A stretch of DNA of 64,000 nucleotides from contig CAZWNZ010000001.1 of the NCBI GenBank assembly GCA_964635715.1, positions 344,274 through 408,273 on the forward strand. Reading direction: 5' to 3'. The translations under genes were made by a program, and so were the position numbers. Positions 17,229 to 29,658 of the stretch are shown here, piece by piece (position 1 is the first letter of the stretch; every line of letters starts with the position of its first letter). A model generated the notes under the pieces. It had not been told where the DNA came from. It saw only the letters and a program-made list of their open reading frames with translations, and did no database searches. The stretch comes from an uncultured Gammaproteobacteria bacterium (GTDB lineage: Bacteria > Patescibacteriota > Microgenomatia > UBA8517).

Positions 17229-17417
17229 ATGAGTGATAATTCAAATTTGATAAATGTGGGGAATCCAGAAAACCCCGTCTTGATTTCTCGAGATTCTTTA
17301 CATCCAGACACCCCTCAGGGTAATGAAGAGTGGGAAATGATTGCAGATGGGTCTATAGATATCCCGGAACCAGCCTTAGATAATTTGATAGAAAAGGTTA
17401 AGGATGAAAATAAATGA
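17229..17417 (+). CDS. Hypothetical small acidic protein
   Basis: 62-aa ORF whose end overlaps the mvk start; acidic composition. Confidence 0.3.
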   Translation: MSDNSNLINVGNPENPVLISRDSLHPDTPQGNEEWEMIADGSIDIPEPALDNLIEKVKDENK

Positions 17418-18228
17418 TGTTCCTGCAAATAGAGTTTCGGCTCCCGCAAAGCTAATTTTATCGGGTGAACATGCCGTAGTGTATGGTTATCCAGCCATAG
17501 CTACAGCCGTGAATCTCCGTTTATGCATCAATTCTCATGGTGAGATAGTTTCTAACATTCCGATTGGTGCCGGAATGGGATCTTCGGCCGCTTTTGCGGT
17601 TGCAAAATCAGCACTCAAGATTGGCAAACTTGATCTGGAAAATATCAACAAATCCGCTTATGAAATGGAAAAAATTCAGCACAGGAATCCTAGCGGGGTG
17701 GATAACACTGTTTCAACCTACGGAGGGTTTTTGTGGTACAGGAAAGAGTCTGAAAACTTCAAGACGTTCAAAAATTTTATTCCGGACAAAACAGTACCGG
17801 AAATGTTTTTAATAAATACAGGTAAACCTTTGGAGACTACAGGTCAGATGGTTAAATTAGTGGCTGATGCACAGATTTCTAGAAAATCATATTTTGATAG
17901 GGTATTTCGGGAAATTGAAATGGTTACAAAAGAAATGCTGGGAGTTTTGGTAGGTGACAAAAATTCGGATTTTGGAGAGTTAATTTCCTCAAATGAGAGG
18001 CTTTTGGAAAAAATCGGTGTAGTGTCGCACTCTACCAGGAAATTGATAATTGAAATAGAAAAAATCGGCGGAGCAGCAAAAATTAGCGGAGCAGGCGGCA
18101 AATCCGGAGCAAGCGGAATATTAATTGTTTATCACAAAGATTCAGAAAAATTGAAAAAATTTGCAAAAACGAATAATCTGGCGCTTAGCTCGATAAAATT
18201 AGGAGAGAAAGGAGTGCGTTTTGAATAA
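17404..18228 (+). CDS. mvk: Mevalonate kinase (GHMP kinase family)
   Basis: N-terminal APAKLILSGEHAVVYG and GHMP motif PIGAGMGSSAAFAVA; C-terminal GAGGKSGASGILIV. Confidence 0.8.
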   Translation: MKINDVPANRVSAPAKLILSGEHAVVYGYPAIATAVNLRLCINSHGEIVSNIPIGAGMGSSAAFAVAKSALKIGKLDLENINKSAYEMEKIQHRNPSGVDNTVSTYGGFLWYRKESENFKTFKNFIPDKTVPEMFLINTGKPLETTGQMVKLVADAQISRKSYFDRVFREIEMVTKEMLGVLVGDKNSDFGELISSNERLLEKIGVVSHSTRKLIIEIEKIGGAAKISGAGGKSGASGILIVYHKDSEKLKKFAKTNNLALSSIKLGEKGVRFE

Positions 18229-19192
18229 AGTTACGGCAGTTTCACCGGCAAATATTGCATTTATAAAGTATTGGGGAAAGCGAAATTCTAAGCTGAACAT
18301 TCCCTATAACGATTCCATTTCCATGAATTTGGATAGTTGCTTCACTAAAACGACAACTGAGTTTGATTCCAAACTAAATGAGGATAAGGTGTTTATCAGC
18401 GGGGAAAAAGTAATTGGAGAAAAAAAGGACAGGGTGGTCGGGATTCTTAATTTAATAAGAAAAATGGCAGGAATAAAAACTTTTGCCAGGGTGGAATCAG
18501 AAAATAATTTTCCAACTGGAGCAGGAATTGCATCTTCAGCCTCAGGATTTTCTGCACTTGCCCTTTCGGGGAGTAAAGCTGCAGGTTTAAAGCTAAGCCA
18601 AAAAGATCTCTCCAGATTGGCCAGAATGGGATCCGGCTCGGCTTGCCGCAGTATTTCTGCGGGTTTTTCCTACTGGAAGAAAGGTTCAAATGATAAAACT
18701 TCGTACGCTTTTCAGATTGCACCGCCCGATTTTTGGGATTTAAGAGATATTATTGCCGTGACTTCATCCAGCAGTAAAAAAACAAGTTCCACGGAAGGAC
18801 ATGGGCTTGCAACAACAAGTCCCTACTTTGAAAAAAGGATTCAGAGAATTGGAAAAAGAACCTCCGGACTTAAAAAAGCGTTGTTAAACAAAGATTTTGA
18901 AAAATTTGGCGAGCTTTTGGAGGAAGAAGCAATTGATCTCCATATAATGGCAATGACTTCGCATCCGCCCATATTTTACTGGAATAGCGGAACATTGAGC
19001 GTAATGCAAAAGATTTTTGAACTAAGGGAAAAGGGAACAGCTTGTTACTTTACGATGGATGCAGGACCAAATGTTCATATAATATGTCGAAAAAAGGATG
19101 AATCTGTTGTCCATAATGCCGTCAAAAAGCTGCCGCTTGTTCAAAAAATAATAATCAATAAAGCGGGAAAAGGAGCTAGAATAATAAAATGA
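18221..19192 (+). CDS. mvaD: Mevalonate (di)phosphate decarboxylase family protein
   Basis: N-terminus ANIAFIKYWGKRNSKLNIPYNDSISMNLD is the hallmark of the diphosphomevalonate decarboxylase family; a GHMP-type Ser-rich ATP loop is also present. Confidence 0.85.
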   Translation: MNKVTAVSPANIAFIKYWGKRNSKLNIPYNDSISMNLDSCFTKTTTEFDSKLNEDKVFISGEKVIGEKKDRVVGILNLIRKMAGIKTFARVESENNFPTGAGIASSASGFSALALSGSKAAGLKLSQKDLSRLARMGSGSACRSISAGFSYWKKGSNDKTSYAFQIAPPDFWDLRDIIAVTSSSSKKTSSTEGHGLATTSPYFEKRIQRIGKRTSGLKKALLNKDFEKFGELLEEEAIDLHIMAMTSHPPIFYWNSGTLSVMQKIFELREKGTACYFTMDAGPNVHIICRKKDESVVHNAVKKLPLVQKIIINKAGKGARIIK

Positions 19193-19980
19193 AGGAATTA
19201 ATATTAATTAAACTTGGTGGAAGCGTCATTACAGATAAAAGCAAGGAATATTTTGTCAGGGAGGAGAATATAACACGTCTTGTAAAGGAACTGAAATCTG
19301 CACTTAAATCTACAAACTTAAAAATTATCGTAGGGCATGGAGCAGGGAGCTTCGCCCATATCCCAGCGAAAAGATATAAAACCAAAGAGGGATTAATAAA
19401 TAAAAATAGTTTGTTTGGAGCAGCAGTAACTGAAGAAGCAGCTAAAATATTGAATGCAATTGTTGTCAAAAAATTTATTAACGAAAAAATGCCAGCTTAT
19501 TCATTTTCTCCAGGAACTTTTCTAATTTCCGATGCAAAAGTATATAGTAAATCATATATTGATCCGGTCAAAAAGGCACTTGAAATTGGATTTGTGCCTA
19601 TTGTCTATGGTGATGTTGTTTTAGATAGAAAGATTGGTTTTACCATATTTTCAACAGAAAAAGTTTTGGCAGTTTTTGCAAGGGAACTTAGTAAAGAATA
19701 CAAAATAAGAATGATTTATGTGACGGATGTTGATGGGGTTTTAGACAAGTCTAATAAAGTAATTCCGACAATTACAAGAAAAAACTTTGAAAGCTTGAAA
19801 CCTACTATTACCGGCGCAAAAGGTGTGGATATTACAGGCGGGATGCTTCACAAAGTTGAGGAGGCTTTGTTTTTGGCTGAAAAGTATAAAATTAAAACGC
19901 AGATTATTAATGGCTTAAAGTCAAAAGTTCTAATGAAGACAATATTGGGAAGTAAAGTTAACGGAACGGTAATCTTTTAG
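19189..19980 (+). CDS. ipk: Isopentenyl phosphate kinase (amino-acid-kinase fold)
   Basis: LILIKLGGSVITDK and IVGHGAGSFAH motifs of the IPK / amino-acid kinase family; start overlaps the upstream gene stop (translational coupling). Confidence 0.78.
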   Translation: MKELILIKLGGSVITDKSKEYFVREENITRLVKELKSALKSTNLKIIVGHGAGSFAHIPAKRYKTKEGLINKNSLFGAAVTEEAAKILNAIVVKKFINEKMPAYSFSPGTFLISDAKVYSKSYIDPVKKALEIGFVPIVYGDVVLDRKIGFTIFSTEKVLAVFARELSKEYKIRMIYVTDVDGVLDKSNKVIPTITRKNFESLKPTITGAKGVDITGGMLHKVEEALFLAEKYKIKTQIINGLKSKVLMKTILGSKVNGTVIF

Positions 19981-20327
19981 AAACAATCCGTATCCACAGT
20001 CATTATTTTTAGCCATAATTCCTCTGTTTTTGTAATTGCCATACCGGTTCTGGCTTTAATTCTAAGAGTCTCCTTCGCTTGTTCAATTTCTTCAGGCACG
20101 GGTTTTCCCCAGACAAACTCCCAAGCTATACCGTAAAGGGCAATATCTTCGCCCTGTTTTGGTAACGGATGACCTTCAATAAATTTCTCTATAGTCAAAC
20201 AATTCTGTGAATTGTACCCTACACCTTCAGGAATCGTGATGGGAGTACCCCAAAAATCGTGCTTATTCTGAATACTTTTGATCTCTGAACCAATTAAAGA
20301 TTCTAAAACTATCTCTTTTGGTTGCAT
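19977..20327 (-). CDS. Hypothetical protein (trimmed to internal Met)
   Basis: The track ORF 19977..20549 overlaps idi at its 5' end. The C-terminal 116 aa from MQPKEIV at 20327 are non-overlapping and of ordinary composition. Function unknown. Confidence 0.35.
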   Translation of the reverse strand: MQPKEIVLESLIGSEIKSIQNKHDFWGTPITIPEGVGYNSQNCLTIEKFIEGHPLPKQGEDIALYGIAWEFVWGKPVPEEIEQAKETLRIKARTGMAITKTEELWLKIMTVDTDCF

Positions 20328-20385
20328 GGGTGATATTATATCAAAGATTAGTACAAAAAATGATACACTTTTAGCTATTCGGTAA

Positions 20386-20898
20386 ATGTCAAAATCTGTT
20401 GTATTGGTTGATAAAGAGGATAAAGTAATTGGGTTTGGAGACAAACTGGAAACCCACAAAATCCCTGTCAAACTGCACAGGGCGATATCCGTACTGATTT
20501 TTGATAAAAGCAGAAGTAAAATGCTCATGACAAAAAGGGCAAAAAACAAACCTACGTGGGGTGGTTACTGGAGTAATGCGGTTTGTACTCATCCGTATCC
20601 GAACGAGACCTATTGGGTAGCAGCCGAAAGAAGACTTTTTGAGGAACTGGGCATAAAAACATCGTTAAAAGAAATCTTCGTTTTTAATTATGAAGCCAAA
20701 ATGAAGAACAGTAATTGGGGTGAGTGCGAATTAGACCATGTCTTTGAAGGATTTTATGAAGGCCAAATTAAGCCCAATCCGGCAGAGATATCAGATTACA
20801 AATGGATTGAGATGAATAAATTGAAAGAGGATATTGAAAATAACCTGGATAGCTACACTCCTTGGTTTCGTAGAATTGTAAGTAAGCTTTCAATTTAA
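20386..20898 (+). CDS. idi: Isopentenyl-diphosphate delta-isomerase, type 1 (Nudix fold)
   Basis: LHRAISVLIFD...LMTKRAKNKPTWGGYWSNAVCTHP...AAERRLFEELGI follows the type-1 IDI pattern (HRAFS...TNTCCSHP...RRL.EELGI). Confidence 0.85.
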   Translation: MSKSVVLVDKEDKVIGFGDKLETHKIPVKLHRAISVLIFDKSRSKMLMTKRAKNKPTWGGYWSNAVCTHPYPNETYWVAAERRLFEELGIKTSLKEIFVFNYEAKMKNSNWGECELDHVFEGFYEGQIKPNPAEISDYKWIEMNKLKEDIENNLDSYTPWFRRIVSKLSI

Positions 20899-20899
20899 T

Positions 20900-21781
20900 C
20901 TAATAATTTCGTTCCAAAATGAAGTCTGTCAATTCCACAAGCTGTTTCCTCGCTGGCTCTTGTGACAGAAAAGAAAGTTTTTTATTAAAGATCTCCTTGG
21001 CAAGATCTTTTTCTTTACTGGCGATTTTCTTAGTAAAACCTACTCCCTTTTGAGTTGCCAGAGTCGCCTTACCTTCCTTCCTGTCTTGGTCAATGTCTAA
21101 TATATCATCCACCAATTGAAAGCAACGCCCCAAATGCAGTCCAAATTCTGTAATTTTGTCAATTTGGGATCTCGTTGCATTTGCAGCAATTGCTCCGAGC
21201 CTCATGGGCCCTGCGATTGAATAATAACCGCTCTTGCCGTCAGCTATGAAGAAACAGTCATTTTCATTAACTTTAGAAATCGTCCCATCTGTCCACATTT
21301 GTTCAACTCCCTGGCCAAGAATTGTTCTCATTAGGATGCTGTAAAACTCTTGTTTAATTTTTTCTGATTTAAGATCGGTGATAATCTTCCACATAATCAT
21401 GCTGAGAGTATCACCTGCGTTTATCGCCATTTCATTTCCATATATCTTGTGGAGACATGGTTTACCACGTCTTTCGTCAGAATTATCTATTATGTCATCA
21501 TGAATTAATATCCAGTCTTCGGACAGCTGCATAGCTGCAGCAACATTTAATACTTTGCTTTTTTTTATTCCTAACGCCTCAGCAATCAACAAAACAAATG
21601 TGGGTCTCATATACTTACCTTTTCTTTCGGGATATTCTTTGTTTACTTTCCAAAAGAAATCAACCTCCTTTCTGTACCCCGACGGTATTTGAAATTGTAC
21701 AGGGTAGAGAGGATCTTCCAAATATTTCTCAATAACCGGCCAAACAAGTTTCTTTGTTTCCTCAAGTGTGTTTTGTACCAT
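20900..21781 (-). CDS. Trans-isoprenyl diphosphate synthase (FPP/GGPP synthase family)
   Basis: First Asp-rich motif LIHDDIIDNSDERRGKP and second motif VDDILD. Confidence 0.88.
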   Translation of the reverse strand: MVQNTLEETKKLVWPVIEKYLEDPLYPVQFQIPSGYRKEVDFFWKVNKEYPERKGKYMRPTFVLLIAEALGIKKSKVLNVAAAMQLSEDWILIHDDIIDNSDERRGKPCLHKIYGNEMAINAGDTLSMIMWKIITDLKSEKIKQEFYSILMRTILGQGVEQMWTDGTISKVNENDCFFIADGKSGYYSIAGPMRLGAIAANATRSQIDKITEFGLHLGRCFQLVDDILDIDQDRKEGKATLATQKGVGFTKKIASKEKDLAKEIFNKKLSFLSQEPARKQLVELTDFILERNY

Positions 21782-21806
21782 TGCTTTGTATTATAATATA
21801 CTCTAC

Positions 21807-23108
21807 ATGTCAGACAAAAATATTCTTCCTCAGGGAACCACAACACCTGACCACATAGCAATTATTCTTGATGGCAACAGGCGTTGGGCTAGATCCCGAG
21901 GATTACAGCCCTGGCAAGGGCATAAAGCCGGCTATGAAGCAGTCAAGAAACTGGCACTCGCTTCAAGGGAATTTGGGGTGCACACATTTACATTGTGGGC
22001 TTTTTCTACAGAGAACTGGGAAAGGTCGCAGGAGGAGATTAATGAACTCTTTAAACTGATGAGGCACGGACTTCTTGAGTTTGAAAAAGAGTGTCATAAA
22101 TACAATACAAGGCTAATTCATTTGGGGAGAAAGGACAGGTTCCCCAAAGAACTTTCCAAAGAGATTGTCAGGATAGAGAAAGAAACAGAAAAATATAAAG
22201 ACCATATTTTAAACCTAGCGCTTGATTACGGAGGGAGAGATGAAGTGATCCGAGCCGTTAAAAAGGTTGTTATTGACAAAATTCCTGCTGAAAAAATTAA
22301 TGGAGAACTCTTTGAAAGCTACCTAGACACAAAGGGACAGCCCTATCCAAACCCCGATCTCTTTATTAGAACTAGCGGAGAGCAAAGAACAAGCGGGCTT
22401 CTGCCTTGGCAAATGACTTACACTGAGTATTATTTCGCCCCCGAACATCTTCCGGATTTTACTCCGGGAAGACTGAAAGACGCAATTTTAGATTTTTCGA
22501 GGCGTAGAAGGAGGTTTGGTGGGAACGACAAGGAAAGTCATTTTGTTTTTGATCCCAAACTTACCGCCAAACTTGAACTTTCCTGGTGGAGACTTAGTAA
22601 AATTCCGGAAGGAGTGCGACTTAGAGACTATGCTGCGGACCATTTAATCGAACAGTACGGTATTTCCAAAAAGCTGGCAAAAGAAGCCGCGAAATACTTG
22701 ATTGAAGCTATCGTAGAAGAAAATGATGAAAAATGGGATAAGTCCAAGGAAAAAATGAAAGAGTTTTACCGTTTGATCAAAAGTGAGGTAAAACTTGCTT
22801 TCGAACCAAAAATTGTGGCTTCAATGGAGGTTGATTTTAATAAAAAAATGAAGGGTAAAGACACTTTCAAGGCGGCTTCCGATGCGGAGGAGCTGGCCTG
22901 TGAGCACTTGGCCGAAGTCTATAGAATTTCCCTTTTTCAGGCTGCCAAAGCCGCCAGACTTAGAGTTTTGGCTGGAGTTGAGAAAAATCTGGCTCTTTCC
23001 GCCCGTTCGACAGGCTCAGGATCTTCGAGATTTGCCGAGGAGCATTGGAATAGGGCAGAAGATTATCTTCAAAAGTATTATGCAGCTCTTAAGGAAAGGG
23101 TTGCCTAG
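21807..23108 (+). CDS. uppS: Undecaprenyl-diphosphate synthase (cis-prenyltransferase) with ~200-aa C-terminal extension
   Basis: HIAIILDGNRRWA, WAFSTENWERS and the DYGGRDE core motifs. The canonical enzyme is ~250 aa; this ORF is 434 aa from ATG 21807. TATAAT at 21789..21794 lies just upstream. Confidence 0.85.
   Translation: MSDKNILPQGTTTPDHIAIILDGNRRWARSRGLQPWQGHKAGYEAVKKLALASREFGVHTFTLWAFSTENWERSQEEINELFKLMRHGLLEFEKECHKYNTRLIHLGRKDRFPKELSKEIVRIEKETEKYKDHILNLALDYGGRDEVIRAVKKVVIDKIPAEKINGELFESYLDTKGQPYPNPDLFIRTSGEQRTSGLLPWQMTYTEYYFAPEHLPDFTPGRLKDAILDFSRRRRRFGGNDKESHFVFDPKLTAKLELSWWRLSKIPEGVRLRDYAADHLIEQYGISKKLAKEAAKYLIEAIVEENDEKWDKSKEKMKEFYRLIKSEVKLAFEPKIVASMEVDFNKKMKGKDTFKAASDAEELACEHLAEVYRISLFQAAKAARLRVLAGVEKNLALSARSTGSGSSRFAEEHWNRAEDYLQKYYAALKERVA

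Positions 23109-23944: not shown

Positions 23945-29658
<5,714 letters not shown>

Follow-up and report, generated by a model that had tools for sequence, protein, structure and literature searches.

The window analysed here, a stretch of 64,000 nucleotides, belongs to the genome of an uncultured bacterium of the class Microgenomatia (Candidatus Woesebacteria), and the system under study is a cluster of six isoprenoid genes within it. The genome (G000; other G numbers designate the genomes of relatives and L numbers their loci) is assembled into 4 contigs amounting to 813 kb, with a completeness of 96.96%. A listing of open reading frames (ORFs) combined with family scans of the window confirmed all six genes, at the coordinates reported in a first-pass annotation of this DNA. 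The cluster opens with a short GHMP kinase of 274 amino acids resembling mevalonate kinase (MVK), here termed sK (17404-18228, forward strand), which reaches 156.4 bits on the MVK model TIGR00549 (cut-off 163.05). It is followed by a decarboxylase of the MDD/PMD family, DEC_B (18221-19192, forward), with MVD-like_N and MDD_C domains and 295.5 bits on TIGR01240 (cut-off 171.35), and by an isopentenyl phosphate kinase, IPK (19189-19980, forward), with 199.3 bits on NF040647 (cut-off 120). Further downstream lie IDI-1, the type 1 (Nudix) isomerase of isopentenyl diphosphate (IPP) and dimethylallyl diphosphate (DMAPP) (20386-20898, forward; 146.9 bits on NF002995 against 127, and 128 bits on TIGR02150 against 105.8), a trans-prenyl diphosphate synthase of the FPP/GGPP class (20900-21781; PF00348, 156.5 bits), encoded on the reverse strand, opposite to the other five genes, and the cis-prenyltransferase UppS (21807-23108, forward, the listed ORF beginning at 21768), with 220 bits on TIGR00055 (cut-off 109.55) and 228.6 bits on PF01255.

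Purifying selection acts on the cluster genes, which are intact and coupled in translation. The stop codon of sK overlaps the TTG start of the decarboxylase gene by 8 nt, and the stop of the latter overlaps the ATG start of the IPK gene as ATGA; none of the six genes holds an internal stop, and catalytic motifs were found in all six proteins. Comparison with genus-mates gave non-synonymous divergence (dN) values of 0.18-0.28 and synonymous divergence (dS) values which were either saturated, as in 5 of the 8 pairs, or between 1.4 and 1.9; for IPK against that of G004, dN was 0.18 and dS 1.38. In IPK the motifs GHGAGSFAH and KLGGS are conserved, and the archaeal IPKs are its best solved relatives (about 129 bits). 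Both the Cys motif (AVCTHP) and the Glu motif (GECELDH) occur in IDI-1, and the prenyl synthase has the motifs DDIID (residue 95) and DDILD (residue 225); all product-specific NCBIfam models remained below their cut-offs for this last enzyme, whose predicted chain length is short. A scan for promoters and terminators gave counts not above those of shuffled controls. No RNA dataset is listed with this DNA; the DNA datasets are bioreactor metagenomes from two studies, one of them possibly its source.

A whole-genome search with GHMP_kinases_N returned only two matches in G000, sK and the decarboxylase, with neither a GHMP-type phosphomevalonate kinase (PMK) nor IspE among them, and the animal-type PMK (PF04275) was below cut-off. 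The absence of PMK which the first-pass annotation had noted for the cluster is therefore true of the whole genome, and the classical pathway, in which PMK precedes the decarboxylase, finds no second kinase in G000. At the upstream end, Pfam searches detected no HMG-CoA reductase (HMGR), HMG-CoA synthase (HMGS) N-domain or thiolase above cut-off. In the case of HMGS, PF01154 proved too insensitive, as the HMGS of relatives match only ACP_syn_III_C and HMG_CoA_synt_C, and weakly; tblastn was used instead, the HMGR, HMGS and thiolase queries being taken from three or four relatives. With the relatives' HMGR, HMGS, acetoacetyl-CoA thiolase (AACT), type 2 isomerase (IDI-2) and MVKt (a longer MVK-like paralogue of sK) as queries, only chance-level matches appeared in G000 at E<=1. 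HMGR was likewise found nowhere in the genus (0 of 8 genomes, among them assemblies of 2 and 3 contigs). As regards the methylerythritol phosphate (MEP) pathway, DXR gave 14.3 bits, below its cut-off, and IspH no match, in a search that covered these two enzymes and not DXS, IspD, IspF or IspG. G000 is left without another route to IPP, and the complete mevalonate route implied in the first-pass annotation is reduced to its lower half.

The distribution of these genes was determined across the class in a sample of 201 genomes, requested at a completeness of 85% or more, in which kin are not independent of one another. The decarboxylase occurs in 59 of them, sK in 53, HMGR in 49, MVKt in 45, IPK in 38 and IspH in 29, and MVKt and IPK never occur together (0/201). 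The 59 genomes with a decarboxylase comprise 45 in which MVKt is present and IPK absent, 11 with the converse pattern (IPK adjoining the decarboxylase in 9 of them) and three fragmented assemblies with neither; none has both. The kinase displaced by IPK is MVKt. The short kinase is found with either form: 43 of the 45 genomes with MVKt contain it, as do 7 of the 11 with IPK, and it is also present in 43 of the 49 genomes with HMGR. At least 8 families are represented among the IPK-type genomes, and 6 of the 11 carry HMGR. HMGR is absent from 15 of the 59 decarboxylase genomes and IspH from all 59, while both are missing from 123 of the 201 genomes.

A group of seven genomes is particularly useful for assigning the kinases. 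G095, G114, G165, G214 and G243 of the class sample combine HMGR, sK, the decarboxylase and IPK without MVKt, and the same set, plus HMGS, is present in G036 and in G017, a 99% complete genome in a single contig. With HMGR and IPK present and MVKt missing, these seven genomes offer no candidate mevalonate kinase other than sK. This fact, together with the presence of sK in both forms of the pathway, makes it the likely mevalonate kinase, and the co-occurrence patterns probably make MVKt the phosphomevalonate kinase. The simplest reading is that sK would act on mevalonate in both forms, that MVKt and the common decarboxylase would constitute the classical pair, and that the IPK-linked decarboxylase and IPK would form a pair which decarboxylates before it phosphorylates. 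As separate observations among relatives, G029, G081 and G171 have HMGR without decarboxylase or IPK, G029 and G081 also being devoid of any pathway kinase, and G097, G119 and G217 have HMGR and IPK without a decarboxylase; these HMGR genomes could reflect assembly gaps or yet another route.

Rat and human MVK are the best solved relatives of sK (89 and 79 bits, against 31 bits for PMK), and sK scores 42 bits on the PMK model TIGR01220. It shares PSGVDN and GMGSSAA with the MVKs of Chloroflexi; the catalytic motif is PSG(V/I)DN in sK and the Chloroflexi enzymes, and GSGFD(L/V)A in MVKt. Homologues of sK with 269-285 amino acids are numerous, and those that bear a name are called mevalonate kinase. 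In the kinase tree, sK and MVKt form separate families (25 and 30 rows, respectively, with a support of 100 for the split), and sequence alone does not tell which of them would be the phosphomevalonate kinase. Other single GHMP matches in relatives were considered as pathway enzymes and discarded, as they were sugar kinases of the heptose-phosphate-kinase type.

The decarboxylases were compared in an alignment of 87 sequences and a tree of 57, which included all 39 rows with an informative neighbour and every third of the 48 without one, 30 context-free rows of Chloroflexi type being omitted. DEC_B falls in a clade of seven (G000, G004, G008, G017, G018, G036 and one metagenome-assembled genome), supported at 97 in a quick tree and 96/97 in a careful one. 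IPK adjoins the decarboxylase in all seven members, as against none of the 31 other rows from the candidate-phyla radiation (hereafter the radiation). A whole-genome search showed the same division, with IPK in all 6 genomes that have the IPK-linked decarboxylase and in none of the 7 with the other type. With the root placed on Chloroflexi, the IPK-linked clade branches as the sister group of all the radiation's remaining decarboxylases (88/68). Moreover, the approximately unbiased (AU) test rejected the grouping of the window and G004 proteins with the decarboxylases of G001, G005 and G006 (p=0.0011); the group tested was named after the tree had been seen, yet it is simply the genus. The genus accordingly has two decarboxylase lineages that alternate at one locus. 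The four IPKs of the genus, in turn, constitute one clade (99/97), in which members that stand alone and members linked to a decarboxylase are intermixed, a pattern in keeping with repeated loss of the upper pathway steps first.

At the level of residues the picture is mixed. The best solved relative of DEC_B is the Anaerolinea thermophila enzyme 6n0x (302.6 bits, against 245.9 for classical MDD), and DEC_B carries Asp280, Arg143 and the Ser-rich loop. A Ser and an Arg bind pyrophosphate in the Enterococcus faecalis enzyme, according to the available part of PMC7414129, and the position of this Arg is occupied by Thr in all the decarboxylases of the radiation and of Chloroflexi. Among 15 columns that discriminate the clade, two (positions 167 and 213) converge clearly on the Chloroflexi state. 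In addition, 6n0x is separated from its variant 6n0z by two substitutions (N to K, H to M), which may bear on specificity. The inspection of specificity residues, which the first-pass annotation had put forward as a check, did not point clearly to the phosphomevalonate type, in view of the residues found at these two positions (see below) and of the small number of Chloroflexi-like columns. It is the genomic context that argues strongly for a decarboxylase acting on mevalonate 5-phosphate, and DEC_B would, on that basis, be a phosphomevalonate decarboxylase.

On the 5' side of the cluster lie a PEGA-domain gene, mreB, a glycosyltransferase gene of the WecG/TagA family and a gene for an ECF sigma factor, so that the setting of the cluster is that of cell-envelope biogenesis; the first-pass proposal that the route feeds undecaprenyl-phosphate synthesis is supported by this conserved locus, which ends in UppS. 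The usual order in Levy-, Gottesman-, Roizman- and Woesebacteria is HMGR-HMGS-thiolase-sK-MVKt-decarboxylase-(IDI)-UppS/prenyl synthase, without IPK. Many of the relatives that possess HMGR, HMGS and thiolase have them directly 5' of sK, the place held by the sigma-factor gene in G000, where the locus is syntenic across many genomes. The block from PEGA, mreB, wecG and sigma to UppS (which is present in 54 of 61 relatives) is conserved, and what varies is the content in between. This interval holds sK-DEC-IPK-IDI in G000, DEC-IPK in G004, IPK-IDI in G002, IPK in G007, G014, G019, G023 and G026, sK-MVKt-DEC-IDI in G001 and G030, and MVKt-DEC-IDI in G005 and G006; in G008 and G018, where the UppS side is the one observed, DEC-IPK stands beside the prenyl synthase and UppS. 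None of these genomes (G000, G001, G002, G004-G008, G014, G018, G019, G023, G026 and G030) has HMGR. If sK is the mevalonate kinase and MVKt the phosphomevalonate kinase, every gene set of the series is a contiguous lower segment of the pathway, the opposite assignment leaving several of them with an internal hole. The IPK-type cassette and that with sK, MVKt, the common decarboxylase (DEC_A) and IDI, carried at the same locus by sister genomes, look like functional equivalents, as far as the step from phosphomevalonate to IPP is concerned.

Taken together, we regard it as reasonably probable that these genes constitute a functional module for the lower half of a mevalonate route, of the phosphomevalonate-decarboxylase/IPK type, and that the Candidatus Woesebacteria genome which carries them would be unable to make mevalonate. 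According to this scheme, mevalonate coming from a host or from the community would be phosphorylated by sK, the decarboxylase would convert phosphomevalonate into isopentenyl phosphate, and IPK would phosphorylate the latter to IPP, with IDI-1 producing DMAPP; the short-chain synthase would then make the allylic primer from which UppS would produce the undecaprenyl diphosphate used in the envelope. The presumptive elements of the scheme are the substrates assigned to sK and to the decarboxylase, together with the uptake of mevalonate and its source. Salvage of mevalonate, rather than its synthesis de novo, is proposed because the upstream genes are missing, yet the remaining ones are intact and coupled, purifying selection acts on them, and IPP is required by UppS. 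The first-pass annotation had held that missing HMG-CoA genes would make the cluster non-functional; they are indeed missing, but the state of the remaining genes and the need for IPP speak against that corollary. Its main proposal, an IPK-dependent route, is sustained by the gene set and by comparative genomics, with the reservations that its MVK is a short, divergent paralogue which in sister genomes accompanies a canonical-looking MVK, and that the residues are mixed.

Several observations weigh against this interpretation. The short kinase is below the TIGR00549 cut-off and some 40 residues shorter than canonical MVKs, and it is MVKt, with 324 amino acids, about 205-215 bits on the same model and an archaeal MVK as its best match in the PDB (152 bits), that looks like the usual enzyme; the MVKs of Chloroflexi, moreover, group with MVKt in the tree and not with sK. 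DEC_B lies above the cut-off of TIGR01240, the diphosphomevalonate equivalog, and reaches only 208.9 bits on NF040704, the model of the haloarchaeal phosphomevalonate decarboxylase MvaD, which has a cut-off of 475. At the two positions that distinguish 6n0x from 6n0z, it has K as in 6n0z and H as in 6n0x, and the same K/H pair is frequent in the decarboxylases of MVKt clusters. One of these, from a full MVKt cluster, also matches 6n0x/6n0z best (313-319 bits), and therefore overall similarity cannot separate the two activities. It is in fact possible that all the decarboxylases of the radiation act on the monophosphate, with MVKt acting after them, which would leave the reading of the window unchanged. 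Finally, about 3% of G000 is unassembled, and no mevalonate transporter or source was identified for it.

Three other explanations have to be weighed against salvage of mevalonate through this module, and each of them appears unlikely. One holds that the IPK-dependent pathway is complete and operates de novo, the upstream genes being unassembled or non-homologous; the assembly in 4 contigs leaves some room for such genes, and HMGR does accompany this type of module in G017, G036 and the HMGR-bearing IPK-type genomes of the class sample. We give this little credence, as neither the family search nor tblastn with sequences from relatives found HMGR, HMGS or thiolase in G000, as HMGR is lacking from every one of the 8 genomes of the genus, the 2- and 3-contig assemblies included, and as the site 5' of sK is taken up by the sigma-factor gene in a syntenic locus. 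Another explanation exchanges the names: sK would be PMK, the decarboxylase would be of the classical diphosphomevalonate type and the route would start from phosphomevalonate, IPK serving an unrelated salvage of isopentenyl phosphate. The verdict of TIGR01240 on the decarboxylase and the closer resemblance of MVKt than of sK to characterised archaeal and Chloroflexi MVKs are in line with it, and so is the occurrence of IPK alone in 27 of the 38 IPK-bearing genomes of the class sample, and beside IspH in some, from which it follows that the enzyme can operate independently of a mevalonate route. Nevertheless, such an exchange would deprive the seven HMGR-bearing genomes described above of any mevalonate kinase, and it predicts MVKt with both forms of the pathway and sK with one, when the opposite is seen; the low score of sK on TIGR01220 is a further point against it, and we consider it improbable. 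In G051, G204 and G242, members of the class with the MEP pathway, IPK adjoins ispH or lies near it and is thus also present where there is no mevalonate context, perhaps for the salvage of isopentenyl phosphate.

The remaining explanation is that the cluster is a decaying remnant, with IPP, prenyl phosphates or finished undecaprenyl phosphate being taken from a host and the module having ceased to matter. Every stage of loss can be seen at the same locus, from DEC-IPK only in G004 to IPK only in G002, G007, G014, G019, G023 and G026, and many genomes of the class lack HMGR and IspH alike. Even so, decay sits poorly with genes that are all intact in their catalytic motifs and joined by start/stop overlaps as in coupled operons, with dN far below dS across a genus-level divergence, and with the abundance and conservation of short sK homologues, so that a remnant is hard to credit. 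The lower-half module fed with external mevalonate is, for these reasons, the interpretation retained here.

A wider hypothesis, which is tentative and which we would hold to be somewhat less probable than not, extends the salvage scheme to the whole lineage. The kinase labels would be swapped in Microgenomates, with sK as MVK and MVKt as PMK, and the IPK-linked decarboxylase clade, whose sister position to the radiation's other decarboxylases has modest support (88/68), would mark a phosphomevalonate-decarboxylase route perhaps ancestral to the radiation and Chloroflexi. The pathway would erode from the top (full set, sK-DEC-IPK, DEC-IPK, IPK alone), and different symbionts would accordingly depend on hosts with a mevalonate pathway for mevalonate, phosphomevalonate or isopentenyl phosphate; the uptake of phosphorylated intermediates is the more speculative part of this hypothesis.

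The phosphomevalonate-decarboxylase ('MPD', haloarchaea-type) route is known from Chloroflexi and haloarchaea (Dellas 2013 and VanNice 2014, as cited in the available part of PMC6107057). The gene set of G000 resembles it in combining a single putative mevalonate kinase with a GHMP-family decarboxylase and IPK, PMK being absent, and in having 6n0x as the best solved relative of its decarboxylase. It departs from it in that the kinase is of the short sK type and the isomerase of type 1, in that DEC_B belongs to a candidate-phyla clade and has K where Chloroflexi have N in YWG(N/K), and in that HMGS and HMGR, which the Chloroflexi route includes according to the same part of PMC6107057, are both missing. 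As for the radiation, the portion of the survey of Hoshino and Gaucher (2018; PMC6107057) that was accessible describes mevalonate genes throughout Microgenomates, with homologues of MVK, 'PMVK', DPMD and IDI-1, the early and late enzymes having the same distribution; the radiation is treated there as having the bacterial/eukaryotic GHMP set, and IPK, often syntenic with IDI-1, is given an uncharacterised role. The first-pass framing of the route as one best known from archaea and a few bacteria has thus to be qualified, since mevalonate genes and an IPK of uncertain role had already been reported in the radiation. Compared with that account of the same Microgenomates lineage, G000 lacks the early steps, IPK takes the place of one kinase with which it never co-occurs, and the IPK-linked decarboxylases form a clade of their own.

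Truncation of the pathway also has a parallel. The ultrasmall episymbiotic archaeon Ca. Micrarchaeum harzensis keeps late mevalonate genes without HMG-CoA reductase, and its authors infer a dependence on host lipids or precursors (PMC8975820, in the part accessible). G000 is alike in retaining the late genes only; it differs in being a bacterium with an sK/decarboxylase/IPK module that feeds UppS, the archaeal route being, in the same part of that paper, of the Thermoplasma type with mevalonate-3-kinase and leading to membrane lipid. A survey of 2024 mentions the radiation, in its available sections, only for the eukaryote-type pathway (PMC11052028), and those of a review of 2026 on incomplete bacterial isoprenoid pathways deal with Mollicutes, Rickettsia, Listeria and Legionella, the name 'Patescibacteria' being absent from them (PMC13001223). 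In the literature searched, to which the supplements of PMC6107057 and of bioRxiv did not belong, no assignment of a phosphomevalonate decarboxylase or of mevalonate salvage was found for this radiation.

Engineered lower pathways fed with mevalonate and mevalonate-auxotrophic mutants of Gram-positive cocci establish, in principle, that external mevalonate can serve as the source of IPP when only the kinase, decarboxylase and isomerase steps are present. Those laboratory systems follow the classical PMK route; G000, by contrast, occurs in nature and is of the IPK type. If the proposed assignment is true, a second bacterial lineage would have the phosphomevalonate-decarboxylase/IPK route, and the IPK left unexplained in the 2018 survey of the radiation would acquire a function. 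It also leads to a clean, testable prediction as to which of two look-alike kinases performs which step. Furthermore, the lack of HMG-CoA genes points to mevalonate as an outside need of an uncultured episymbiont, which would be useful for cultivation and for guessing its hosts, and the modules truncated to different degrees at one locus amount to a natural experiment on how symbionts shed a pathway. The re-assignment of the kinases and the truncation series deserve testing most.

Some features of the locus deserve a brief description. In UppS, the Prenyltransf domain is above the curated cut-off, and a C-terminal extension of about 190 amino acids (22557-23108) lies outside the family model; it is 48-84% identical in 15 distinct loci of relatives, and has no Pfam match, the protein atlas returning unnamed clusters only. 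UppS has 420-470 amino acids in relatives of the same family and 230-270 in other members of the class. The listed ORF begins at the GTG at 21768, and the ATG at 21807 is the start which fits the length of about 425 amino acids in relatives. Two small ORFs keep their position in relatives, and for both there was no Pfam match and only unnamed clusters in the protein atlas. The first (17229-17417, forward, 62 amino acids) is directly 5' of sK and overlaps its start, and tblastn located counterparts directly 5' of sK in G001, G010, L037 and L020/L022, with 34-44% identity. The second (19977-20327, reverse, 116 amino acids) is situated in the 405-bp spacer between the IPK and IDI genes, and is 54% identical over 116 amino acids to an ORF of G019 located between IPK and the prenyl synthase. 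A longer reading of the latter, of 190 amino acids, overlaps the IDI gene, and its N-terminal matches are antisense to IDI.

Three further observations concern relatives and the remainder of the window. In G017 (L100:3450-4487), which carries the IPK-type pathway in full, an FMN-dependent, type-2-like isomerase adjoins IPK, compared with IDI-1 in the window. A Cys-rich protein of 139-167 amino acids (NIWGK.GCELP...CNACC...SPCPNL...WHCS), which is absent from the window, is encoded directly 5' of the mevalonate module in four relatives, namely at L013:7063-7500 (G006), L015:6781-7284 (G004), L014:6366-6785 (G005) and L011:4146-4613 (G030), its only family match being a weak one to CxxCxxCC (E=0.05). 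Lastly, downstream of UppS, an ORF of 1598 amino acids (23945-28741, reverse) has an N-terminal helix-turn-helix of the MerR type as its sole family match.

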